A stretch of 64,000 bases of DNA from Methylococcales bacterium (GCA_018672285.1 JABHGC010000237.1:17883-81882); one strand, 5' to 3'; shown: positions 40,741-54,745, counted from the stretch's first letter. Notes: generated by a model not told the origin, from the letters alone. Numbers and translations: made by a program.

Positions 40741-41388
40741 CTAGCTGTGGCCGTTGGTGATGTACCAATGTTGGGCAAAATAATACGCCACGCTGAGCAC
40801 TACGCCAACAACAATGGCATTGGTGTATTGACGATCTTTTATCCAGTAGTCCATGCTCACATACTTACCTGCGCCATAGAAGAATAAGGCGAACAGCATC
40901 ACCAGATAGGTTACGCCCAGTTCAATACCATTTTGAAGCATGTAAGGGCCTGACGTGTCGATACTGTAGAGTTGGTTGTACCAAATGGGGGCGTTACTTT
41001 CTAACCAGGTCATGAACCGGCCAAGGAGTTGTGCCGACTCTGTCGTGTCGGGTGCAATGGCATGCCAATGACCCCAGTGTACGGTGAATATAGCGACAAA
41101 CATTGTCACGATCAGTGGGATTGCAATCCATCTAACCGCGAAGCCTACTAATAATAATATGGCACCAATGACTTCGGTTGCGGTTGCTAAATAGGCCATT
41201 AACTCCGGGAACGGCAAGCCTAAACCATTTTTAAACTAGGTGACGATATGAGGGAAGTTATCTACTTTTTTTAAACCGGCCATTAAGAAAACAGGTACCA
41301 AGTATATTCTAATCGCCAATGGGGCGATAAAATCAAGCGATTTGGTTTTGTCTAGTAGTCGTTGTGCGCCTTCAAGAAGTCTCATCAT
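40741..41388 (-). pseudogene. DoxX-family membrane protein with an in-frame TAG stop at 41236..41238
   Basis: The ORF 40741..41217 lacks the N-terminal helix. The upstream in-frame 50 codons starting at ATG 41388 encode 'MMRLLEGAQRLLDKTKSLDFIAPLAIRIYLVPVFLMAGLKKVDNFPHIVT', then TAG, then 'FKNGLGLPFPELMAYLATATEVIGAILLLVGF...'. Together these make a complete DoxX fold. The gene is therefore interrupted, or mis-sequenced, or read through. Confidence 0.7.
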
Positions 41389-41492: not shown

Positions 41493-42332
41493 TTATTTAC
41501 TGTGCTGAGTTCCCAAAACAATGCCTTCGTTTTGCAGTTGTTGCAGAATTTCTAAGCCACCAGCGATAACGGCATCGGGGTTTGGGTGCTGCATTTCTTC
41601 AGCAATTTGGGATAGGGCTGCATGTCCTGTTAACTCAGGGTTATCTTGGAGAATGGCTAAAAGCCGATCAGAAATGGGGTTTACTTCCATAAAGCCCACG
41701 GTTTGATCGTCATTTTGCCTGCGAAAAATGACAATGCAGGTCACTTGATCACCCGGGGTGTCCGGTAAAAAATCTTCACTAATATGATGAACCGGAAAAT
41801 GGTAAGCCAGTCTTTTTAGTAGCGGGTTAAGTGCAATTTGGCTCGCGAGTAAATCACCTTCAGTGTCAACAGAGTCTAGGGTAATTTCTTCTTCTGAGAG
41901 GTAAATCTCCATTTCGACCCATTCATAATGTGCAAGCTCTACGAGAAAAGGCGGGTCGTTTGGGTTGTCGCGGCCTTCTTGTAAGTAGCGCACAAACTCT
42001 TGACCAAAAACAGGGAATATAGGGGTGTGGCAACGGAAATTGCTGACAAAGTCCCGAACCATTGCATGCCACTCCTCAGCGGAGGTGATGTCATGGATGA
42101 CGGGGAAATTGTGAGCTAATAAATCCTCGATATTGTTATATACCACGCGCTGGTAAGCATTCATTCTGCGGGCTTCAATCCCCTCAGGGAGTGGCTTGTT
42201 TGCAGGGTCACGAATACAGTCGGTAAACTCAAACTGCTTTTGCATGAAAAGGGGGAGATCAGCTCGCGATGGCAGTGTGTTGTTCATCCTTGCTCCATTT
42301 TTTTTGTAATTTGGCAATATGGTTGACTTCAC
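41493..42332 (-). CDS. DUF2063-family protein (MbnC/BufC/HvfC-like partner of MNIO enzymes)
   Basis: 279-aa ORF with the DUF2063 N-terminal pattern ('FTDCIRDP...RMNAYQRVVYNNIEDLLAHNFPV...FVRYL'). The true start is probably the internal Met 'MNNTLPS', giving a 29-nt overlap with the upstream DUF692 gene. Confidence 0.8.
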   Translation of the reverse strand: MKSTILPNYKKNGARMNNTLPSRADLPLFMQKQFEFTDCIRDPANKPLPEGIEARRMNAYQRVVYNNIEDLLAHNFPVIHDITSAEEWHAMVRDFVSNFRCHTPIFPVFGQEFVRYLQEGRDNPNDPPFLVELAHYEWVEMEIYLSEEEITLDSVDTEGDLLASQIALNPLLKRLAYHFPVHHISEDFLPDTPGDQVTCIVIFRRQNDDQTVGFMEVNPISDRLLAILQDNPELTGHAALSQIAEEMQHPNPDAVIAGGLEILQQLQNEGIVLGTQHSK

Positions 42333-43135: not shown

Positions 43136-43163
43136 AAAAAAAGCGCGATGCGAGTAATCGCAC
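43136..43163 (-). terminator. intrinsic terminator/attenuator between the precursor gene and the MNIO gene
   Basis: On the minus-strand RNA: gugcgau-uacucgc-aucgcgc (7-bp stem, one G-U) followed by U7 (plus-strand A7 at 43136-43142). It lies 27 nt after the precursor stop and 26 nt before the DUF692 start. Confidence 0.55.
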
Positions 43164-43189
43164 CACGCTTATCGGTAGTCTAGCGCTAA

Positions 43190-43621
43190 TTATTTTTTAG
43201 AGCCACAAGAACCTGCACCGCAAGAACCTGTTTTACCTTTGTCGCCACAAGAGCCCGCTTTGCCTTTGTCGCCACAAGAACCGGCTTTAGCTTTGTCGCC
43301 ACAAGATGCCGCTTTTCCTTTGTCTCCACAAGAGCCCGCTTTCGCTTTGTCACCACAAGATGCAGCTTTGCCTTTATCGCCACAAGAGCCCGCTTTTGCT
43401 TTATCACCACAAGATGCTGCTTTTGCTTTGTCGCCACAAGATGCAGCTTTACCTTTGTCGCCGCAAGAACCTGCGCCGCAACTACCGTTACCAGCTACTT
43501 TGTAGCCATCTGCTAAAGGTGATACTGCAAATGGGTTGCTATCGGCAGAAACTGAAGTCATTGCTACTGATGATACGAATGCTGCGCCGATTGCTACTGA
43601 TAAAGTTTTTTTGTTAGACAT
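43190..43621 (-). CDS. Sec-secreted repetitive Cys/Lys/Gly-rich precursor peptide, 12 x 'SCG', 9-aa repeats SCGDK(G/A)KA(A/G); candidate RiPP (bufferin/HvfA-like) substrate
   Basis: 143 aa. Signal peptide 'MSNKKTLSVAIGAAFVSSVAMTSVSA', then 'DSNPFAVSPLADGYKVAGNG', then SCGAGSCGDKGKAASCGDKAKAASCGDKAKAGSCGDKGKAASCGDKAKAGSCGDKGKAASCGDKAKAGSCGDKGKAGSCGDKGKTGSCGAGSCGSKK. RBS GGAG upstream. First gene of the operon. Confidence 0.75.
   Translation of the reverse strand: MSNKKTLSVAIGAAFVSSVAMTSVSADSNPFAVSPLADGYKVAGNGSCGAGSCGDKGKAASCGDKAKAASCGDKAKAGSCGDKGKAASCGDKAKAGSCGDKGKAASCGDKAKAGSCGDKGKAGSCGDKGKTGSCGAGSCGSKK
43199..43480 (-). repeat. tandem 27-nt coding repeats, about 10 units, encoding the SCGDKxKAx motif
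   Basis: Visible as reiterated 'tcgccacaaga(g/t)cc(c/g)gctt(t/c)(t/g)cctttg' units. They generate three spurious overlapping ORFs on both strands (43186..43437, 43239..43505, 43306..43617). Confidence 0.85.
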
Positions 43622-44040
43622 AAATATGTTTGCTCCACATTATAAAAGGTTACTCATTTCTGAGTGGTTAATTAAATCGTCATGATTTGCAGTTATGACC
43701 AAGGCTTTTGTTGTAAAGTTCACTAAGCCTTAAAAATATTCCGTAGAAAATATAAAATAACTCGGTAGGTAATTGTTTTACCTGTATTATATTCTAAAGT
43801 CGAATCTTTCTCGTTCGCAGTAAGTATAGTGAACATTTGGTTTAAGTGAAGAGGCTTATGTTCTATTGCTAAATGCGAGCTTCTGCTTCACCGGTTTATT
43901 CATCTGGGCGGCTTTAGGTTGTTAAACATTTTAGGATATTACTGTCATATAAGTTTAATGCCCTACAATTTGTCATTAAAGTTTTAGCTCCCGATGCCGC
44001 CAGTAGGTACATAAAACAAAAAACGATTAAATCTCTCTGG

Positions 44041-47000
44041 GTGCAAACTGTGCGATCAAAAAAACTGAAACAGACGATAAAGTCCGTGCTTGGGGCGCGT
44101 TGGGTTATTCCTGTAACGCTCGTAACATTGCCTCAAGCTTCAAATGCTGAGCTAACGGGCGAGAGTATTATCTCTGGTAGTGCGATCTTCTCAAGGCCCG
44201 ATGCTAACACTACGATTATTACTCAATCCTCCGACAAGCTGATCATTAATTTCGACAGCTTTTCGATTGGCAGTAATGAAACGGTTCGTTTTATTCAACC
44301 CAGTGCTTCGTCCATTGCGCTTAACCGAGTGCTAGGTGGTAGTGCCAGTAACATTTTGGGTCAACTCTCAGCCAATGGCAGCATTTTTCTGGTGAACGCC
44401 GGTGGTATCTTCATTGCACCCACAGCGGCAATAGATGTCTCCAGTGTTATCGCCACAACTCTCGATATTGCCAACCAAGATTTTCTCAATAACACCTTTC
44501 AATTCTCCAAAGTCGCAGGATCCAGTTTCGGTAAAGTTATCAGCGAAGGTGAGATCAGTGTTGCCGATGGTGGTTATGTTGTACTCGCCGGGGACTATGT
44601 AGAGAACAGCGGTATTATCCAGGCCAAGCTAGGGGACGTAGCGCTAGCCTCAGGCAACCGAATTTCACTCGATTTAAGTGGTGATGGACTGATTCAATTT
44701 GCCGTTGACCAAGCGGCGGTAGATGCGTTAGCAGGCGTGAATAACGTCGGTCAAATCACAGCCAATGGCGGTAACGTCGTAATGACCGCCAAGGTGGCCA
44801 ATGACCTAGCTTCCACCGTGGTACAAAACAGCGGCATCATTAGTGCAGAAAGCATTGCTGAAGTGAATGGAGAAATTTTCCTCTCAGGCTCAGGCGGGGA
44901 CGTGATTAATGAAGGTCAATTGGTTGCCAGCAGTACAGAAACCCATGGTGGAACGGTCATTGTTCAATCGGACAGCACGACCTTAGTCGAAGGCAGTGGT
45001 TCAATTGATGTCAGCTCAGTGAATGGTACCGGTGGGCAAGTACAAGTTTTAGGCGAACGAGTTGGTTTATTCGACCAAGCCAATATATCAGCCTCAGGCG
45101 CATTAGGTGGTGGTGAAGTGTTGATCGGTGGCGACCAAGCCGGTCTTAATCCAGATATTCAGAATGCCAAGCGCACAGCGATTACCTCAGAGATCACAAT
45201 CACAGCGGATGCTATACAAAGCGGTAATGGCGGCAAAGTGATTGTGTGGGCGGATGAGAATACCCATTTTGAAGGTAATATCAGCGTTAAAGGTGGGCAA
45301 CAATCTGGTGATGGTGGCTTTGTAGAGGTCTCGGGTAAACAGAATTTATTCTTTGATGGCACTGTCAATACTTTTGCAACGAATGGTCAACAAGGGACGT
45401 TATTGTTGGATCCATTAGATATAACCATTGTAGATGGTGCGGGTGGTGCAAATGATGCAGAGCTTGCTGATGACAGTATTTTGTTTGCTGATGGTGGTGC
45501 CGTTACCTTTACCATTGCCGAGCAAACACTGGAAGCGGTTACGGGTAATGTCATTTTACAAGCTGATAATTCCATCACGGTGAATGACTTAACGGATAAT
45601 ACGTTAGATTTTATTGGTCTCACAAGTGGTAATACCATCGTTTTTCAAGCCGGTGGTAATATCTTTTTTGCTGGAGCCGATGATACGCTGGATACGAACA
45701 ATGCTGATCTTCACATTGAAGGTAGCTCGGTTCATGGTACAACAGGTACAGCAAATACATCACCTAGATCCGTTTTTTCGGGTACAGGTGATATGACCTT
45801 TTTAGGCTTTCAAATTTTTTCAGATGGTGGCACCTTTACAGGGAACAATATTAATTTTGGTGCGGGTACCACAGCCGGTGCGGCTGGAAACTTTGTAGGC
45901 GGTGTTGCTGCGTTAAGTGAGAATATCATTATTTCTGGCGCGACCACCATTAATGCCAGTGGTACCGTTAATTTTGACGTGAATAACAGTTTTCAGTTAT
46001 CTGCACCTCTGACGGTAATCGCTGTTGGTGATATCAATGTCAATGGCCTGATTGTTGATAGTGTAGGGGGCGGCGCAAGTTCACCTTTACTGATGGCATC
46101 AACGACAGGCAGTATTACGATTAGTGCTGACATGCAGTCATCTAATGGAAATGCATTTGCCTTAGATGCCGCCAATAATCTTACAGTACAATTTATTAAG
46201 TCAGGTGGTACTCCAGCGGCCTTTACATCTAATTTAGACGCGGGTGGTTTGCTGAATGTTAATGCGTTTAATGCCGTGGGTGGTAGCTTGGATGCGCTCA
46301 GTGGCGGATTATTAACCATTAATAGCGCTCTGGTGACGAATGGCGGTAATGTTAGTTTGAATTCTGGTGGTGGCATATTACTCAATACAGGTTTCGATAC
46401 GGGGGGTGGTTTTTTTACTGCAAACTCAACGAATAATAATATTACTTTTACAGCTGCAAACAGTGATACGGGGGGGGGCGGAACATTCAGCGCAACCGCG
46501 ACGGGTACTGGCTCGATTAGTATTCCTGCTGGTGCCAACATCAGCACCAATAACGGCAGTTTTTCAGCAGTCGCAAATATTGGTGATGTATCGATTAGTG
46601 GTTTGACCAATGCAGGCACCGGTAATATTACCGTTGCGACCACGACCGGGGATCTATTTTTACTGGGCGGATTAAGCACTTCTGGTGGTTTTATTGATAT
46701 CGATATTGTTAATAGTGGTGATATTACCGTGGGTAACACCAATACCACGGGTGGCGGTGTGTTTGACTCGCGGATTGCGAATACTGGCAATATTTTATTT
46801 CAGTCTGGTACAGGTATCGCCACCAGTGGCGGCAATATACTCGCGCTCCAGCTTGGCTCTGGTAATGTGACTAACGATGGTACACTAAATGCATTAGCGG
46901 GTGGCGTACAGCTTGCAACAACGGCAGGAACCGTGACTTCAAGCAGTACAGTTAATGCGGGGGATTTTACCGCAACAGCACAAACCTTAGTCGACTTGCA

Positions 47001-50000
47001 AGCGGGCTTCACATCTAACGGCACAACAACGATCATAACTGCATCTACTGGTAATGTGATTCTTGCGGGTGGTGTCACCTTCACCAATGCCGGGGGTAAT
47101 AACGTCACCATTAATGCTGTGACCGATATTGATATTAATGCCAGCTTTACCACCACAGGTAGCGGCCCTATTGATTTTACTGCAACAAACACGGGTGGAA
47201 CGGCTTCGGTCGAGACACTAACCCTTAGTACCGGCACATTGCTTAATACTAATGGAGGTTCGGTCAATTTATCTGAAACAGGCAGTGGCGATTTAAGAGT
47301 AACGGGTGTTGGTGTGAGTACAGTCGCAGGTGCGTTTACAGCATCAACAGTTGCAGGGCTGATAACCAATGACACCACGATTGAGACAAGTAATGGAGGC
47401 GGTGGTGGCCTACTAACATTGTCCTCGACGGGGGTTGGAGCAATCACCTCTACTGGTTTTTTACAGGGCGGTGGCATTGTGGTCTCAAATGCTGGGAATG
47501 TATTGATTTCGAATAATATCAGTCAGGCGAATGATATTAGTGTCAGTGGCAGTAATGTTGTTTTAAGTGGCTTTACGACCGATGGAAATGCCACCATTAG
47601 TGCAACAGATCAAGTTACTTTAAGCAATGCTTACCAGTTTAATAATGGTGCAGTGAAAACATTCGCCACAAACGCAACTAACACCGTGAGTTTTGCTGCA
47701 GGGGCTAATATTTTAGCAAGCGGTTCACCGTTAAATTTTTCAGTTAATAGTACAAATGGCGATGTGCAGCTAAATGGTACTAGCATTAACTTAGCAACAG
47801 GAACATTAAGTATCACCTCGGGTGCATTAGTTGATATTAACTCTGCCCTAAGTAATTTGGGTGGTTTGTCTGCTGTTGCCGCTTCAGATATTAGCTTGAA
47901 CAGTAATGTGACGACCAGTGCTGGTAATATCGATTTGACGGTGACAGGTGCTGCCAATATCAATGTGGGTACTTCGAGTATAGATACGGCAGGGGGTACA
48001 CTAACCCTATCATCTGCAGGGGGCTTGAATGTTAATTCCAGCCTATCGGTAACGAATGCAGGGTTAACGACGTTGCAACTGACAGGTAATACCGATGCCG
48101 ACAGCCTCGTGAATCTAGGTACAATTAATACCAATGCTGGTGATTTGCTGCTGAAAACAAATACGGGTAATCAATCAGTCACATTGGGTGCACTGAGTGG
48201 TAATAATCTGACTTTATTTTCAAATGTAATGACTTTTTCAGGTGGTGCAAACTCAATTAGTGGCACAGGGATATTAGATATTAAGCCACGTTTTACAGCA
48301 GCAAATGCAACCATTGATATCGGCACTGTTGCTGGCGGAACAGGCAAACTGGTGGTGGATACCGCGGCACTCGCTGATGGATTTAGTAGCATTACTATCG
48401 GTCTCTCGGACGGTGATACAGCTGTAAAGCTTGGTGATGCAACCTTTAATGACCCAACTTTGATACGTGCGCCACTGGGTGCTGGTAGTATTACGGTTAA
48501 CGGTACCATTACGCTGAATAATAATGGCAATGTTGATTTTCAAACGGTAGGCCCAACATTAATTTTGGGTGGCTCGCTCACCTCTGCTGGCACCGATATT
48601 ACCATAACGGATGATTTGCAGATCAATGCGCCATTTACCTTTAGTTCAGGGGTTGGTGCTGGGAATATCAGCTTAAGTACCATCGATACCGCAGGCACAC
48701 CTATAGCATTAACCTTTGAGGCCGGTACAGGGAATGTCGTTGTGGGTAATGTGGGTGCGAGTATTCAACCTGACTCCTTTACCGTGACCAGTGCGAATAC
48801 GGTGACAGCGCAACAAATTAATACATCGGGTGATGTTAATATCAATGCTTCAACGATTAATTTGCAAGGCGTAGTGATTGCGGCGGGCAACTTTACTGCT
48901 TCTGGCAATATCAATTTATCCTCCAGCGTCACTGCTGACCTAGGGATTACGCAATCAGCAGGATCATTAGCCGTGTCAGGTTCACTAACACTCACCTCAA
49001 ATGGTGCTGGTACGTCGGGTATATCTTTAAATGATATTGATGGCGCCGGGAGTTTGAATTTATTGTCACTCGGGCCTGCACAAGTCGGTATCGTTGGCGG
49101 AACAACACAATTGACGTCGTTTTTTACCGATGTTGCCGGCAGTATTACGACAGGTAGTATTTCAACTCAAGGAAGTGCCACATTAATAAGTGATGTGGAC
49201 ATTAATATCGCATCATCTATCACCTCTCAGGGTGGTAACGTCATCATTGAAAGCCTGGGGGGAGTGAACCAAAGTGCAGGAACGGTGCAGTCAGTCAATG
49301 GTGGCGTGAGGGTTGCAGGTTCTAATGTTTTGTTATCGGGTAACGTGATAGGTGGTAGCAATACCTTTAGTAACGCTTCAGGAATAGGTGCTATTTTAAT
49401 TGAAAGCACATCTGCACTGACGGTGAATAATCTGACAGCCAATGCGGCTGATAACTTGAATATTGTCCTGGATGCAACAGACATCACGATTAATGGTTTT
49501 GTGGCCAGTAATGGTGACACGATTTTGGTGGCGACGAATGATGTGAATGTGAACCAGTCGGTCAGAATTTCCGCAAATTCAAATAGCTCAGTTGAGGGCA
49601 GTGTGCTGATCCAGGCAGACAGCGATGCCAATGGCGTGGGCAGCCTTAACGCAATATCAGGCTCTGAAATTAAAGGGTTTGACATAACTATCTCGGCAGC
49701 TGAAGTGAATACGACAGGGTCAACAGTACTTGCGTTGTCAGGTTCCCCCACGATTACGTTGACTGCCGCTCCACAAGACCCAGCTGCGGACGCCGCTGCT
49801 GCTGCAGCGGAAGATGCTGCGACAGATGCCGTTGCGACCACAACAACGGATACAACCACAACAACAACGACAACAACCAGTACGGGTGGTGGCTTTGATA
49901 ATACCGCTAGTGCGCCAGCGCCTGATACAGCGGCAGAGACTGGGACGACTACAACAACGGATACCGCAACCGGAGATACAAGTACAGCGACGACATCTGA

Positions 50001-50352
50001 TGGCGGGGCAGACACGGGAACAACAGACGGCGCGACAGCGGATAGTGGCACAGCTGCACCAGCAGACGACACGGCGACAACAGAACCTGCAGCAGATTCA
50101 GGCACAGAAGCACCCGCAGAAGAAACCGCAGCAACAGCAGATGAGCCAGCAAAAGCAGACGCCGATGCCACTCCTGAAGAAGCGGTTGCAGAAGAAGGGG
50201 GAGCCGAGGAAGAAGCAGTAGCAGAAGAAGGTACCGAAGAGACGAAAGAAGACGTTGTAGCGGCCACGGAAGAAGAAGCGCCTCTAGAAGAGCAGCCGCT
50301 GATTGCGGTTGCTGATGCGGGAGATGGTAGTGGTCAGGCCTGCACGCCTTAG
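44041..50352 (+). CDS. TpsA-type large exoprotein (filamentous-haemagglutinin-like, TPS secretion domain plus beta-helical repeats plus acidic Thr/Ala-rich tail)
   Basis: 2103 aa, GTG start. Extended signal peptide, TPS domain 'NFDSFSIGSNETVRFIQPSASSIALNRVLGGSASNILGQLSANGSIFLVNAGGIFI', a long Gly/Thr/Asn/Ser-rich repetitive body, and a C-terminal acidic low-complexity region ending 'EEQPLIAVADAGDGSGQACTP'. Confidence 0.8.
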   Translation: MQTVRSKKLKQTIKSVLGARWVIPVTLVTLPQASNAELTGESIISGSAIFSRPDANTTIITQSSDKLIINFDSFSIGSNETVRFIQPSASSIALNRVLGGSASNILGQLSANGSIFLVNAGGIFIAPTAAIDVSSVIATTLDIANQDFLNNTFQFSKVAGSSFGKVISEGEISVADGGYVVLAGDYVENSGIIQAKLGDVALASGNRISLDLSGDGLIQFAVDQAAVDALAGVNNVGQITANGGNVVMTAKVANDLASTVVQNSGIISAESIAEVNGEIFLSGSGGDVINEGQLVASSTETHGGTVIVQSDSTTLVEGSGSIDVSSVNGTGGQVQVLGERVGLFDQANISASGALGGGEVLIGGDQAGLNPDIQNAKRTAITSEITITADAIQSGNGGKVIVWADENTHFEGNISVKGGQQSGDGGFVEVSGKQNLFFDGTVNTFATNGQQGTLLLDPLDITIVDGAGGANDAELADDSILFADGGAVTFTIAEQTLEAVTGNVILQADNSITVNDLTDNTLDFIGLTSGNTIVFQAGGNIFFAGADDTLDTNNADLHIEGSSVHGTTGTANTSPRSVFSGTGDMTFLGFQIFSDGGTFTGNNINFGAGTTAGAAGNFVGGVAALSENIIISGATTINASGTVNFDVNNSFQLSAPLTVIAVGDINVNGLIVDSVGGGASSPLLMASTTGSITISADMQSSNGNAFALDAANNLTVQFIKSGGTPAAFTSNLDAGGLLNVNAFNAVGGSLDALSGGLLTINSALVTNGGNVSLNSGGGILLNTGFDTGGGFFTANSTNNNITFTAANSDTGGGGTFSATATGTGSISIPAGANISTNNGSFSAVANIGDVSISGLTNAGTGNITVATTTGDLFLLGGLSTSGGFIDIDIVNSGDITVGNTNTTGGGVFDSRIANTGNILFQSGTGIATSGGNILALQLGSGNVTNDGTLNALAGGVQLATTAGTVTSSSTVNAGDFTATAQTLVDLQAGFTSNGTTTIITASTGNVILAGGVTFTNAGGNNVTINAVTDIDINASFTTTGSGPIDFTATNTGGTASVETLTLSTGTLLNTNGGSVNLSETGSGDLRVTGVGVSTVAGAFTASTVAGLITNDTTIETSNGGGGGLLTLSSTGVGAITSTGFLQGGGIVVSNAGNVLISNNISQANDISVSGSNVVLSGFTTDGNATISATDQVTLSNAYQFNNGAVKTFATNATNTVSFAAGANILASGSPLNFSVNSTNGDVQLNGTSINLATGTLSITSGALVDINSALSNLGGLSAVAASDISLNSNVTTSAGNIDLTVTGAANINVGTSSIDTAGGTLTLSSAGGLNVNSSLSVTNAGLTTLQLTGNTDADSLVNLGTINTNAGDLLLKTNTGNQSVTLGALSGNNLTLFSNVMTFSGGANSISGTGILDIKPRFTAANATIDIGTVAGGTGKLVVDTAALADGFSSITIGLSDGDTAVKLGDATFNDPTLIRAPLGAGSITVNGTITLNNNGNVDFQTVGPTLILGGSLTSAGTDITITDDLQINAPFTFSSGVGAGNISLSTIDTAGTPIALTFEAGTGNVVVGNVGASIQPDSFTVTSANTVTAQQINTSGDVNINASTINLQGVVIAAGNFTASGNINLSSSVTADLGITQSAGSLAVSGSLTLTSNGAGTSGISLNDIDGAGSLNLLSLGPAQVGIVGGTTQLTSFFTDVAGSITTGSISTQGSATLISDVDINIASSITSQGGNVIIESLGGVNQSAGTVQSVNGGVRVAGSNVLLSGNVIGGSNTFSNASGIGAILIESTSALTVNNLTANAADNLNIVLDATDITINGFVASNGDTILVATNDVNVNQSVRISANSNSSVEGSVLIQADSDANGVGSLNAISGSEIKGFDITISAAEVNTTGSTVLALSGSPTITLTAAPQDPAADAAAAAAEDAATDAVATTTTDTTTTTTTTTSTGGGFDNTASAPAPDTAAETGTTTTTDTATGDTSTATTSDGGADTGTTDGATADSGTAAPADDTATTEPAADSGTEAPAEETAATADEPAKADADATPEEAVAEEGGAEEEAVAEEGTEETKEDVVAATEEEAPLEEQPLIAVADAGDGSGQACTP
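46470..46478 (+). repeat. G9 homopolymer inside TpsA-1 (in frame as sequenced)
   Basis: 'gatacgggggggggcgg' encodes TGGGG. Confidence 0.9.
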
Positions 50353-50506: not shown

Positions 50507-53500
50507 GTGCTGATTGTGCGATCAATGGAATTGAAACAGACAATACGGTCTGTGTTGGATGCTCGTTGGGTGTTGCCTGCAACGTTAGCCGCGTTACCGC
50601 AAGTCGCGAGTGCTGAGCTAACAGGCGAGAGTATTATCTCTGGTAGCGCGACTTTCTCAAGGCCAGATGCTAACACCACGGTGATTACCCAATCTTCAGA
50701 TAAACTGGTGATTAATTTCGATAGTTTCTCTATTGGAAGCAATGAAACAGTTCGTTTTATTCAGCCCAGTTCATCCTCTATTGCGTTAAACCGAGTGATT
50801 GGGGGCAGTGCCAGTAATATCTTTGGTCAGTTATCTGCCAATGGCAGTATTTTTCTCATTAATGCCGGTGGCATCTTCATTGCACCCTCCGCAAAGATCG
50901 ATGTGTCCAGTGTGATTGCGACCACTTTAGACATCGCCAATCAAGACTTCCTCAGTAATAAGTTCGAGTTTTCTAAAGTGAATGGTTCGGCCTTAGGTAA
51001 GGTTGTGAACGAAGGTAATATCCAAGTTGCTGAGCGGGGTTTTGCAGTGCTTGCGGGTGACTACACCGAGAATAGTGGCATTATCCAAGCCAAATTAGGC
51101 TCTGTGGCATTGGCCTCAGGCAGCCGGGTGTCGTTGGATTTAGCCGGTGATGGTTTAATTCAGTTTTCTGTGGATGAAGCCAGTGTTGATGCATTATCAG
51201 GTGTCAGCAACGTCGGCCAGATCACCGCCCTTGGTGGCAATGTGGTGATGACCGCTAAGGTGGCGAATGATTTAGCCTCCACAGTGGTGCAAAACAGCGG
51301 CATCATCAGTGCAGAAAGCATTGTTGAGCGTGATGGCAGTATCTTTTTATCGGGTTCAGGTGGAGATGTCATTAACGATGGCCAATTATCTGTGGTGAGC
51401 CGCTCTGAAGTGAATGGCGGAACGGTCATTGTTCAATCAGACAGTACAACCCTAATCGAAGGCAGTGGTTCAATTGACGCCAGCTCATTGAGTGGCGCGG
51501 GCGGACAAGTACAAGTACTCGGTGAGCGAGTGGGGTTGTTTGATCAAGCCAGTGTTTTGGCTTCTGGTGCGCTGGGAGGTGGAGAAATATTGGTTGGTGG
51601 AGACCAAGCTGGTCTTAACCCAGATATTCAAAATGCAAAACGCACAGCGATCACCTCAGAAACAACCCTTAATGCGGATGCGACACAAAGCGGCAATGGG
51701 GGAAAAGTCATTGTCTGGGCCGATGAGAATACTCAGTTTGAAGGGAATATTAGCGTTAAAGGTGGGCAGATCTCTGGTGATGGCGGTTTTGTTGAGGTCT
51801 CAGGAAAAGACAATTTACTTTTTGCCGGGCAGGTTGATACAGGTAGTGTGAATGGCGACATTGGGACGGTACTACTTGACCCTGCCGACATTACGATTAC
51901 TGATGGGGCTACAGCGGGAAGTTTAGATGGTGTCAATGTCGTTGCCTTTGCGGATGCCCCTGCAGGTAACGAGACAATATCAGAGGCTTCACTAGAAGGG
52001 TTGGTTGGGAATATTGTCCTGCAAGCCGATAATTCAATCACCATCAATGATTTGTCGGATAACGAGTTGGCATTGAATGTTGGTGTCGGCAATACCGTTA
52101 TCTTTCAAGCGGGTGGTAATATCGCTTTTCTTGGTGCGGATGATACGCTTACTTCAAATGGTGGCAACATACAAATTGAAGGCAGCTCTATTCATGGCAC
52201 AACATCTAATGCCAATACAAGCGTTCATTCGCTAAATGCAGGTGCCGGAGATATACGAATATTGGGCTTCAATGTATTTTTAGGGGGCGGTACGATAACC
52301 GGTAATATCATTGACGTAGGTTCCTTTGTCAGTGGTGGTAATGCGGGTGATTTTGGGGTAGGTTCTGCTGTCGTTACGAGTAATCAAGTGTTTGTCAGTC
52401 AAGCAACAACGATTAATGGCAATGTAGGTGGTTCGAGCTTGGTTGATTTTGATTCAACGGGGAGTTTGCAGTTGGATGCTGCATTAACCGTGAATTCAAC
52501 CAATGACATTACGGTGACGAGTTCAGCGGTTGATAGTCTTGGGGGGGGGGCAGTTTCACCTTTAAATCTGACATCAACCGCAGGAAGCATCACCATTAAT
52601 GCGGATTTACAGTCATCTAGTGGTAATGCGTTTACCTTAGATGCTGCAAGCAATATTACGACACAATTTATTAAGTCAGGGGGGTCGCCGGTGGCCTTTT
52701 TGTCTAATTTAACGGCAGGAAATTTATTAACCATTAATAATTTCAATGCGACAGAGGGGAGTTTAACCGCTATTAGTGGTGGCCTGACGACGGTCAATGG
52801 GTCATTCATCACGAATGGTGGTGATGTTAATATCACTTCAAATGGTGGTGTGTTAATTACGACCAATATGGATACAGCCGCTGGTGATATATCGATCACG
52901 AATTCGACGGTAGGCCTGATTAATTTCAATCCTGGATTTAGCACCACATCAGGTAATGTTACTCTCACAAACAATGCGAATGTCGCTGCTGGTGTGCAAA
53001 GTGGGTTTATTGATTTTGGCAGTGACATTACAACTGACAGTGGTAACGTCACAATTCAGGCGTTGGGTGATGGTAATGTGTTCATTCCTACGTTTGTAAC
53101 GAATACAGGTGATTTTGCCATATCGGCTACTTCAGGGAGTATCCTGTTTGATGGTCAAGGTAGTGGCACCAACCTATCTGGTAGTGGCAATTTCTCCGCA
53201 TCCACCGTATCGGGTGACATCACTTTTACAGCACCAATAACCGCCGTGAGTGGCAGTAGCTTGAGCATCAATAGTGGCGGCTCCATTAACATGAGTGGTG
53301 CGGTTAATACGAATGGGGGTAGTTTTAGCGCAAGTGGCCTTAATGCTGTCTTTTTGAGTACGACGTTTAATACCAGTGGTGGTGATTTTAGCGTTTTGGC
53401 AACGAATGGCAATATGGATCTTATTGGGCCTCAGGTAAGTACTTCAGGTGGCAATATCGTATTAACATCGCAAGGCAGTGGGTTTGTTCATACTGACAGT

Positions 53501-54745
53501 ATTTTGGATGCAGGCAGTGGTGATATTACGATTACGACAGATAATGATGCGTTTATACATAATAGTGTCACCGGTACAGGTAGCTTACTGATACAACCGT
53601 TCACTGCCGGGACATCGATTGATGTCGGAAATGGTGGAGGCAGTCAACTCATCATAGATTCAGGTGCAATATCACTCTTTAACTCGGCTTTGTCTAGTGT
53701 CACCATTGGGAGTGCCGGAGGGCAAAGCGCCATTACGATTGGGAGTGGTTTTACCCTCAATACCGATTTTGTCTTACAAGCCGATACCGTTACTCAGTTA
53801 AGTGGTGACACGGTGATTACTGCTGTTGCTGTCGGTTTAGATATACAAGCTATTGGCAATATCGATTTAAATAATATTGATGGCTTAGGTAATATTTTGC
53901 TATCAAGTAGTACGGGAAGTGTTTTGCTTGGTGCTGTAGACTCAGCAGGGCTTAGTGTTATTAGCGGTAATGATATTAGTATTAATGCGCTAACAGGCAG
54001 TATCGGCGATATTGTTTTGCAGGCGAATAACGATGTGAATGTATTGTCTGGTGGGAATATTAGAATTGCTTTGTCCGGTAATGCCATTGTTGGAAATGTG
54101 TTTATCACCGCGGATGCCGACGGGAATGGCGTCGGTAACCTGAATACGGATGCAGGTACGCTGATTGCCGGTCAAGATATTACTGTTTCTGCTGTTGAAG
54201 TGAATGATTTAGGCAGCTTTAATGCACTGTCAGGCGCACCTAGCATTACCCTGTCGTCATCAGCTGCAGATCAGGATGCGGCCATTTTAGCTGAGCAACA
54301 AGCGACGGCTGCTGCAGAAGAGGCCGCTTCTACTGCTGCAGAAACAACGACGACTACGACAACGGGATCAACCAGTACGGGGGGTGGTTTTGACAGCACA
54401 GCGTCAGCGCCAGAACCTGATACATCAACCGATACTGCTACAACGTCAGATGCTGGTACAACCGAGTCTGCCTCTTCAGATTCAGGCGCAGCTCCTGCAG
54501 ATGATACGAGTAATAGCGTCGAAGAGCCCGCGGCAGCGGATGCTGAAGCCGCACCAGAAGAGTCGGTTGCCGAAGGGGATTCAGGCACCGCTTCTGAAGA
54601 AGAACCTGCAGCAGAAGAAAGCACAGAGGGTGAAGCAAAAGAGGAAGTTATTGCGGGGACTGAAGACGAGGCACCATTAGAAGAGCAGCCTTTAATCGCG
54701 GTGGCAGATGTTGGTGATGGCGGTGGACAAGCATGTACGCCTTAG
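50507..54745 (+). CDS. second TpsA-type large exoprotein, tandem paralogue
   Basis: 1412 aa, GTG start. The first ~430 aa are near-identical to TpsA-1, including the TPS domain. Divergent repetitive body; C-terminal tail ends 'EEQPLIAVADVGDGGGQACTP'. Confidence 0.8.
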   Translation: MLIVRSMELKQTIRSVLDARWVLPATLAALPQVASAELTGESIISGSATFSRPDANTTVITQSSDKLVINFDSFSIGSNETVRFIQPSSSSIALNRVIGGSASNIFGQLSANGSIFLINAGGIFIAPSAKIDVSSVIATTLDIANQDFLSNKFEFSKVNGSALGKVVNEGNIQVAERGFAVLAGDYTENSGIIQAKLGSVALASGSRVSLDLAGDGLIQFSVDEASVDALSGVSNVGQITALGGNVVMTAKVANDLASTVVQNSGIISAESIVERDGSIFLSGSGGDVINDGQLSVVSRSEVNGGTVIVQSDSTTLIEGSGSIDASSLSGAGGQVQVLGERVGLFDQASVLASGALGGGEILVGGDQAGLNPDIQNAKRTAITSETTLNADATQSGNGGKVIVWADENTQFEGNISVKGGQISGDGGFVEVSGKDNLLFAGQVDTGSVNGDIGTVLLDPADITITDGATAGSLDGVNVVAFADAPAGNETISEASLEGLVGNIVLQADNSITINDLSDNELALNVGVGNTVIFQAGGNIAFLGADDTLTSNGGNIQIEGSSIHGTTSNANTSVHSLNAGAGDIRILGFNVFLGGGTITGNIIDVGSFVSGGNAGDFGVGSAVVTSNQVFVSQATTINGNVGGSSLVDFDSTGSLQLDAALTVNSTNDITVTSSAVDSLGGGAVSPLNLTSTAGSITINADLQSSSGNAFTLDAASNITTQFIKSGGSPVAFLSNLTAGNLLTINNFNATEGSLTAISGGLTTVNGSFITNGGDVNITSNGGVLITTNMDTAAGDISITNSTVGLINFNPGFSTTSGNVTLTNNANVAAGVQSGFIDFGSDITTDSGNVTIQALGDGNVFIPTFVTNTGDFAISATSGSILFDGQGSGTNLSGSGNFSASTVSGDITFTAPITAVSGSSLSINSGGSINMSGAVNTNGGSFSASGLNAVFLSTTFNTSGGDFSVLATNGNMDLIGPQVSTSGGNIVLTSQGSGFVHTDSILDAGSGDITITTDNDAFIHNSVTGTGSLLIQPFTAGTSIDVGNGGGSQLIIDSGAISLFNSALSSVTIGSAGGQSAITIGSGFTLNTDFVLQADTVTQLSGDTVITAVAVGLDIQAIGNIDLNNIDGLGNILLSSSTGSVLLGAVDSAGLSVISGNDISINALTGSIGDIVLQANNDVNVLSGGNIRIALSGNAIVGNVFITADADGNGVGNLNTDAGTLIAGQDITVSAVEVNDLGSFNALSGAPSITLSSSAADQDAAILAEQQATAAAEEAASTAAETTTTTTTGSTSTGGGFDSTASAPEPDTSTDTATTSDAGTTESASSDSGAAPADDTSNSVEEPAAADAEAAPEESVAEGDSGTASEEEPAAEESTEGEAKEEVIAGTEDEAPLEEQPLIAVADVGDGGGQACTP
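52541..52550 (+). repeat. G10 homopolymer inside TpsA-2 (in frame as sequenced)
   Basis: 'agtcttggggggggggcagtt' encodes LGGGA; the paralogous position in TpsA-1 has only G5. Confidence 0.9.

Follow-up and report, generated by a model that had tools for sequence, protein, structure and literature searches.

What is made from a bacterial gene that consists largely of Ser-Cys-Gly repeats and stands directly upstream of a gene for a multi-iron oxidase? We addressed this question for one locus in a 64,000-nucleotide stretch of DNA from a Methylococcales bacterium (GCA_018672285.1, JABHGC010000237.1:17883-81882), the whole of which is here called the window. The gene is very probably the HvfA-type precursor of an oxazolin/fontiphorin-like captophorin, a Sec-exported, copper-binding product of an hvfABCX operon, as judged from comparison with its relatives. 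The class itself (oxazolin/HvfA, Buf_EGKCG or captophorin) is already known and was described in 2024-2026, and leader conservation, engagement of the RiPP recognition element (RRE) and variable repeat number have been published for it. Unusual here are a variant Ser-Cys-Gly repeat and a matching change in the modifying enzyme. A preliminary description had read the gene as the precursor of a ribosomally made, post-translationally modified peptide (RiPP), with a DUF692 (MNIO) enzyme and a DUF2063 protein as partners, and the family matches support this pairing. It had not recognized the described hvf/oxazolin family. HvfB, HvfC and HvfX all pass the curated NCBIfam cut-offs.

The predicted peptide has a signal peptide, a leader and a repetitive core (Table 1). 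The putative signal peptide has an n-region with Lys-Lys, then a hydrophobic core and a V-S-A site, and it aligns with the signal peptides of the homologues. The leader (DSNPFAVSPLADGYKVAGNG) is 20 aa long and is, as had been proposed, the sole non-repetitive part past the signal peptide. The core, 97 aa in length, is composed of only seven residue types, namely Gly, Lys, Ala, Ser, Cys and Asp plus one Thr. All 12 of its 12 Cys residues stand in an S-C-G context, with Gly after every Cys, and the SCGAG caps noted earlier are present at both ends of the array. The Cys residues are 5 residues apart at first, then separated by nine gaps of 9 and finally by 5 again; SCGAGSCG, which has the 5-residue Cys spacing of the family's paired motif, occurs twice in the core, and the C-terminus reads SCGSKK. 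AlphaFold2, run on the precursor with a 33-sequence alignment, returned a predicted local distance difference test score (pLDDT) of 45 without any secondary structure, a result that does not support the β-helix reported in relatives with 17-residue repeats. It also predicts that the modified chain would be unstructured.

This precursor gene is the first of four, hvfA-hvfB-hvfC-hvfX, which all lie on the same strand. The gap between hvfA and hvfB is 79 nt, and hvfB and hvfC overlap by 29 nt. HvfB shares 59% identity with FonB, an enzyme whose activity has been reconstituted by experiment, and HvfC shares 41% with FonC; the PDB relatives are 3BWW for HvfB and, as a weak match, 3DEE for HvfC. In the hvfA-hvfB gap lies a strong terminator-like hairpin (RNA fold of -21.3 kcal/mol, z = -3.8). 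A hairpin with a U-run, unrelated in sequence, is found at the same position in the sister-lineage locus L086 (3941-3978), in L063 and in L057, and this recurrence suggests partial termination (attenuation) that would favour precursor transcripts. Alignment of the region upstream of hvfA with that of the sister lineage revealed no conserved regulatory block and only weak AT-rich inverted repeats, and a promoter scan of this region scored no better than shuffled sequence.

The precursor has many relatives. In phmmer searches it matched P0001, which passes the NCBIfam model NF050137, at E=4e-18 and P0030, assigned by NCBI to the HvfA family, at E=2e-6; the full NCBI name, carried by one relative, is 'HvfA family oxazolone/thioamide-modified RiPP metallophore'. 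Its BLASTP match to FonA has E=4e-16. A protein search collected 46 relatives of 90-190 aa that possess a signal peptide, an NPFxxxxLxxGY leader and repeats like EGSCGDKAK, and many of them terminate in EGKCGEGKCG. We also collected 80 HvfB loci from species-level genomes, the best of which is only 63% identical to the window enzyme, and 72 of them have enough upstream sequence to be informative. An open reading frame (ORF) with multiple Cys-Gly lies just upstream of the HvfB homologue in 66 of these 72, and 55 of the 66 carry the leader motif. Thus, homologous precursors do recur beside DUF692 genes elsewhere; their absence had been named as a finding that would weaken the RiPP interpretation. 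An exact-sequence cluster look-up of the precursor gave no match. An exhaustive phmmer search of 1.84 billion representatives returned as top matches long low-complexity proteins, which are compositional matches, and the short HvfA-like matches that we inspected among its results all retain an acidic residue at position -3 relative to Cys. The search only showed that a precursor without this acidic residue, like that of the window, appears uncommon.

The leader is conserved, as the preliminary description had suggested checking. The motif [NS]PF-x4-L-x2-GY is present in 101 of the 120 precursors collected, and P30, F31, L36, G39 and Y40 are invariant or nearly so in the precursor alignment. 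The motif is characteristic of the environmental branch of the family. The further proposal that the DUF2063 partner recognizes this leader holds in part. It agrees with the conservation and with published models in which the DUF2063/RRE partner engages the leader (PMC12538549). On the other hand, published changes ahead of the core are tolerated: FonA variants with single Ala changes before the core are still modified (10.1101/2025.11.18.689057), and so is HvfA without its N-terminal region (PMC11252979). Leader recognition is thus plausible, but it would not be strict.

Comparison with characterized systems places the window locus close to several of them and identical to none. It resembles HvfA/oxazolin of nontypeable Haemophilus influenzae (PMC11252979) in the four-gene order, the Sec signal peptide and the multiple Cys-Gly in a repetitive C-terminal core, and the NCBIfam models that HvfB, HvfC and HvfX pass are founded on that system. 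However, HvfA has three AEGKCGEGKCG cassettes where the window precursor has nine single-Cys 9-aa units, [AG]SCGDKxKA, and HvfA carries a disulfide in its N-terminal region, where the NPF..GY motif is lacking. The window HvfB is only 46% identical to that of H. influenzae and reads ERDND instead of ERDFN, and hvfX is interrupted in the window. The oxazolin modification itself has been reassigned from oxazolone/thioamide to 5-thiooxazole (10.64898/2026.06.05.730506). FonABC of Fontimonas thermophila (Gadgil et al. 2025, 10.1101/2025.11.18.689057) includes the closest characterized enzyme pair, and the FonA leader (VFQASDLGAGY) is related to that of the window. FonA differs in using E[GA]KCG 5-mers, and Phe250 and Arg15 of FonB are Asn and Lys, respectively, in the window enzyme. 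The nearest characterized precedent for Ser before Cys is gonophorin NgoA of Neisseria gonorrhoeae (10.1101/2025.11.18.689057), which has S-C-G in a 9-aa repeat (EGSCGASKSA); unlike the window precursor, NgoA keeps Glu at -3, has EGKCGEGKCG pairs and lacks an NPF..GY leader, and NgoB keeps ERDFN. FonBC accepts Ala, Thr or Arg before Cys and needs Gly or Ala after it (10.1101/2025.11.18.689057). This tolerance, together with S-C-G in NgoA, makes the window sites plausible substrates.

The bulbicupramide precursor MmrA of Microbulbifer (PMC12538549) has a conserved leader that was modelled onto the RRE of its DUF2063 partner, as proposed for the window, but its EGKCG cassettes have two Cys each. 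The Buf_EGKCG/oxazolin group (Antoine et al. 2025, PMC12452194), mostly from Pseudomonadota, likewise has a precursor with a signal peptide before MNIO, DUF2063 and DoxX genes and a variable repeat number; it differs from the window precursor, whose repeat has 9 residues and one Cys and has no AlphaFold2 structure. More distantly, bufferins (Buf1/DUF2282 and Buf2) and methanobactin depend on the same enzyme superfamily to form copper-binding heterocycles from Cys, and bufferins are also exported by Sec, while methanobactin differs in its oxazolone/thioamide groups, classical leader and dedicated exporter. The window system is neither of these two. The precursor has no DUF2282 match, and the enzyme scores 270.6 bits on the BufB model, below its cut-off of 310, and 42.8 bits on the MbnB model, whose cut-off is 325.

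A few of the collected loci have features of their own. P0007 (L100:3001-3441 and L101) is an HvfA-like protein with EGSCGEKDG repeats whose gene is beside an ECF (extracytoplasmic function) sigma factor gene and a DUF3379 gene, and no MNIO gene was found within the ~3 kb fetched on each side; it is an orphan or remotely encoded precursor. In P0029, P0033, P0038, P0272, P0299 and P0303, repeats with Cys-Ser (such as EKSCSGDKGK and EGSCSADKKGK) replace those with Cys-Gly, which departs from the small-residue rule reported for FonBC. L060 and L061 (OY759969.1, 6121-12927 and 2561651-2568457) are near-identical hvf loci near both ends of a 2.57-Mb 'chromosome' of a metagenome-assembled genome (MAG). 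Their precursors differ at one residue, and this is probably an unresolved circularization overlap and not a true duplication.

The repeat array turned out to be older and less uniform than had been thought. We counted nine full 9-aa units, not about ten, and they fall into five peptide variants (GKAA and AKAG three times each, AKAA, GKAG and GKTG) instead of two alternating peptides exact at the amino-acid level. Pairwise identity between units averages 85% for amino acids and 82% for DNA. No two units are identical in DNA, the best pair shares 25 of 27 bases, and exact direct repeats reach at most 20 nt. The DNA had been called near-exact and the expansion recent, but the differences between units amount to 18% and are mostly synonymous. 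Among unit pairs, 82 codon differences are synonymous and 48 non-synonymous, and this excess points to selection on the peptide. The DNA of the units is 82% identical within the window array and 69% identical between the window lineage and its sister lineage, where the flanking hvfB is also 69% identical. Units more alike within an array than between lineages indicate lineage-specific expansion or homogenization, which fits each array having been expanded or homogenized after the lineages split, and not recently.

Copy number was claimed to be tunable; it varies among relatives, and no variation was seen within the window lineage. The window gene is 100% identical in DNA, and always 143 aa, in ten independent assemblies (from ENA, JGI, Logan and NCBI, the last being GCA_018661205.1), and the upstream regions are identical as well, except in L094, where 18 of 194 upstream bases differ. 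Since the population is close to clonal, this invariance tests the claim only weakly. L086 and L087, two samples of the sister lineage, share the same HvfB protein (P0049) and have precursors with 12 and 14 Cys, and the difference is exactly two 10-aa units, SCGDKK[DG]KSG. Whole-unit differences are also found in the pairs P0001/P0015, P0007/P0010, P0008/P0017 and P0024/P0045, and the precursors of two Pseudoteredinibacter isoporae strains have 14 and 16 Cys. These counts all come from assemblies, and short reads can collapse repeats. In Microbulbifer MmrA, the Cys-bearing repeats range from five to eight between strains (PMC12538549).

Several observations weigh against placing the gene in the captophorin class. 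The model NF050137 ('KCGExKCG_twice', cut-off 19.5 bits) misses the precursor even at E<=10; the relatives P0001, P0007, P0008 and P0030 score 19.7-38.7 bits on it. Of 715 Cys contexts taken from 100 precursors used as comparators, 96% have an acidic residue at position -3, while 69% have Lys and 26% have Ser at position -1. In the window precursor, an acidic residue at -3 is found at 0 of 12 Cys, and Lys at -1 also at 0 of 12. HvfB reads ERDND for ERDFN (F250N and N251D) and thereby loses a near-invariant Phe that contacts the substrate; the mapping of residue 250 was confirmed against the FonB sequence. The hvfX frame is not intact but split by a TAG, which is fixed across all examined assemblies of the lineage. 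Beside the operon we found no gene or regulator related to copper; the neighbouring genes include those for a chitinase, a response regulator, a kinase, a GGDEF/EAL protein, two two-partner-secretion (TPS) exoproteins and Rnf subunits, and none of these shows a link to copper. Lastly, modification and copper binding of the window peptide, and the activity of HvfB on it, are assumed.

The unusual Cys context and the HvfB substitution may belong together. ERDFN is kept in 117 of 120 metagenomic HvfB clusters and 78 of 80 genome loci, as well as in HvfB, NgoB, FonB and 3BWW. The only other deviating clusters are the closest relatives of the window HvfB, namely P0048 (ERDND, 75% identical) and P0049 (ERDHN, 74%), and the two deviating genome loci are L016 (ERDFD) and L020 (ERDYN). 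On the substrate side, a similar Cys context is found among the comparators only in the sister-lineage precursor L086. The precursors of both close relatives have little or no Glu at -3: L086 keeps it at a single site, and the repeat sites of the L089 fragment lack it. In FonB, Phe250 lies beside the catalytic Asp249 and contacts the residues flanking Cys, and changing it alters substrate tolerance (10.1101/2025.11.18.689057). Enzyme-substrate co-evolution would be a reasonable explanation of these sequence patterns. It is conceivable, although we hold it only tentatively, that the window lineage forms with P0048 and P0049 a specificity-shifted captophorin sub-family, in which enzyme and substrate changed together. 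The substrates in this group would have lost the family-defining Glu at -3 and Lys at -1. They have [AGS]-[AG]-S-C-G-D/E-K units, two of the three lineages also have SCGAGSCG caps, and Phe250 of the enzymes is Asn or His. We rejected Ser at -1 as the cause of the Phe250Asn change, because precursors of the EGSCGDKAK type (P0004 and P0008) and several EGSCG genome loci are paired with ERDFN enzymes.

The HvfB substitution could also be read as a sign of decay, and so could the hvfX stop. This stop falls at a conserved Trp position of the L086 orthologue, whose 212-aa frame is intact; it recurs in five other assemblies of the window lineage and probably arose by a TGG to TAG change. In a decaying operon, the precursor would still be translated, but the enzyme would be impaired and hvfX would be a pseudogene, so that the product would be an un- or poorly modified Cys-rich secreted peptide. 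We regard this as improbable. The loss of Phe250 is common to P0048 and P0049 and is thus an old, retained change. HvfB keeps 86 of the 93 columns conserved at at least 95%, including every conserved His, Asp and Glu, and its metal ligands and catalytic Asp249 are intact. The FonB variants F250A and F250D still form 5-thiooxazole (10.1101/2025.11.18.689057). Bufferins do not require DoxX for their modification or their function (PMC11626156), and the hvfX stop therefore need not disable the system. The synonymous excess among the precursor units also argues against decay.

Another explanation is that the gene encodes an unmodified periplasmic metallothionein-like protein, or a low-complexity or collagen-like secreted protein, and that its adjacency to hvfBC is incidental. 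Unmodified HvfA does bind 2-3 Cu(I) (PMC11252979), and some HvfA-like genes, such as that for P0007 in L100, lie away from any MNIO gene. The precursor also matches Pfam Collagen marginally, at 27.7 bits where the cut-off is 27.2, and collagen-like adhesin models weakly. A collagen triple-helix repeat has an unbroken Gly-X-Y periodicity and is usually rich in Pro. However, Gly recurs at every third residue only in units 8 and 9 of the nine, the core contains no Pro, and the adhesin matches (~28-30 bits) are far under their cut-offs (325-500), so that we rejected the collagen-like adhesin reading. Incidental adjacency is hard to reconcile with the precursor-MNIO-DUF2063 order in 66 of 72 loci and with the precursor-specific leader motif, and we consider an unmodified protein very improbable. 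That the repeat is non-coding tandem DNA, or that the real gene is one of the shadow ORFs, has a negligible probability: the array does contain, in three other frames or strands, ORFs 83-103 aa long, all three foreseen by the preliminary description and covering the array, but only the 143-aa minus frame has a signal peptide, a conserved leader and homologues, the homologues' repeats differ in DNA yet keep the x-C-G peptide pattern, and the sister orthologue keeps frame and architecture at 66-69% DNA identity.

Table 1. Features of the hvf locus in the window (positions counted from its first nucleotide)
Feature	Position	Strand	Basis or remark
hvfA-like precursor gene	43190..43621	minus	ATG-initiated ORF, 143 aa plus stop
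Sec-type signal peptide MSNKKTLSVAIGAAFVSSVAMTSVSA, aa 1-26	43544..43621	minus	by inspection; predicted cleavage after VSA
Leader DSNPFAVSPLADGYKVAGNG, aa 27-46	43484..43543	minus	carries family motif NPF-x4-L-x2-GY
Core, aa 47-143	43193..43483	minus	SCGAG, nine SCGDKxKxx units, SCGAG-SCGSKK; 12 Cys are the predicted modification sites
GGAG, possible ribosome-binding site 11 nt 5' of ATG	43633..43636	minus	candidate from sequence
27-nt tandem array, 9.2 copies, score 279	43221..43468	minus	Tandem Repeats Finder
Shadow ORF, 83 aa, other frame	43186..43437	minus	ORF call; no independent support
Shadow ORF, 88 aa, opposite strand	43239..43505	plus	ORF call; no independent support
Shadow ORF, 103 aa, opposite strand	43306..43617	plus	ORF call; no independent support
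Terminator-like hairpin, 13-bp stem, 4-nt loop, then U7	43141..43170	minus	between hvfA and hvfB
hvfB, MNIO (DUF692) maturase, 283 aa	42259..43110	minus	NF003818 413.9 bits (cut-off 360); PF05114
hvfC, DUF2063/RRE partner, 264 aa from ATG	41493..42287	minus	NF050145 278.7 bits (cut-off 142); PF09836 and PF22106; DUF2063 N-domain with NGO1945-like C-domain
hvfX, DoxX-like, in-frame TAG at 41236-41238	40741..41388	minus	NF050144 138.8 bits (cut-off 80), matches both pieces

How might a captophorin precursor of this kind work? We propose that the operon is transcribed and that the hairpin and U-run after hvfA probably stop part of the transcripts, so that precursor mRNA would exceed enzyme mRNA. 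HvfC, with its DUF2063 N-domain and RRE-like C-domain, would pair with the multi-iron oxidase HvfB and hold the precursor, probably by the NPFx4Lx2GY leader, as the conservation and the published models suggest. HvfB and HvfC have no signal peptides, and modification should therefore be cytoplasmic. HvfB would oxidize each of the 12 Cys and the preceding Ser carbonyl to a 5-thiooxazole, with a loss of 4 Da per site, or up to ~48 Da for a mature peptide of 10.7 kDa. We infer this step from the family to which the system belongs; for HvfA, FonA, NgoA and bufferins the chemistry has been demonstrated (10.64898/2026.06.05.730506; 10.1101/2025.11.18.689057; PMC11626156). The unstructured modified chain would then be exported by Sec and its signal peptide removed after Ala26. 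Outside the cytoplasm, pairs of thiooxazoles may bind Cu(I). Oxazolin binds about one Cu(I) per two sites (PMC11252979), and at ~1 Cu per two sites the window product would carry up to ~6 Cu per molecule. The product may buffer or sequester copper, in line with the functions published for the class under metal stress (PMC11626156). The number of sites per molecule would be set by the count of 9-aa units, which changes by whole units in related lineages.

The two TPS-domain genes mentioned above are divergent from hvfA. One (44041-50352, plus strand) encodes a protein of 2103 aa with a long Thr/Ala/Glu/Asp-rich low-complexity tail at its end, and the other (50507-54745, plus strand) encodes a protein of 1412 aa.

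The locus also bears on annotation. With curated models, the genes for the enzyme, the partner and DoxX receive names and the precursor is overlooked; its sole Pfam match is the spurious one to Collagen. With this compositional false positive and the three shadow ORFs, pipelines will mislabel such a locus.

For the captophorin family, an identical enzyme with a different whole-unit count in two populations provides clean comparative support for a tunable metal-binding capacity, and variable capacity has already been reported for related precursors. The acid-free substrate and the Phe-less HvfB together form an experiment of nature on the choice of Cys sites by these iron enzymes, a question that published mutagenesis has only just begun to address. 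If the specificity-shifted sub-family is real, its enzymes would prefer Ser-Cys-Gly sites without an acidic anchor, and its products would present thiooxazoles derived from Ser in a scaffold that is cationic and free of Glu; their metal loading might be altered. The source MAG is labelled Methylococcales by NCBI, a label that the window itself does not put to the test; should it be correct, copper handling could be important to the metabolism of this bacterium.

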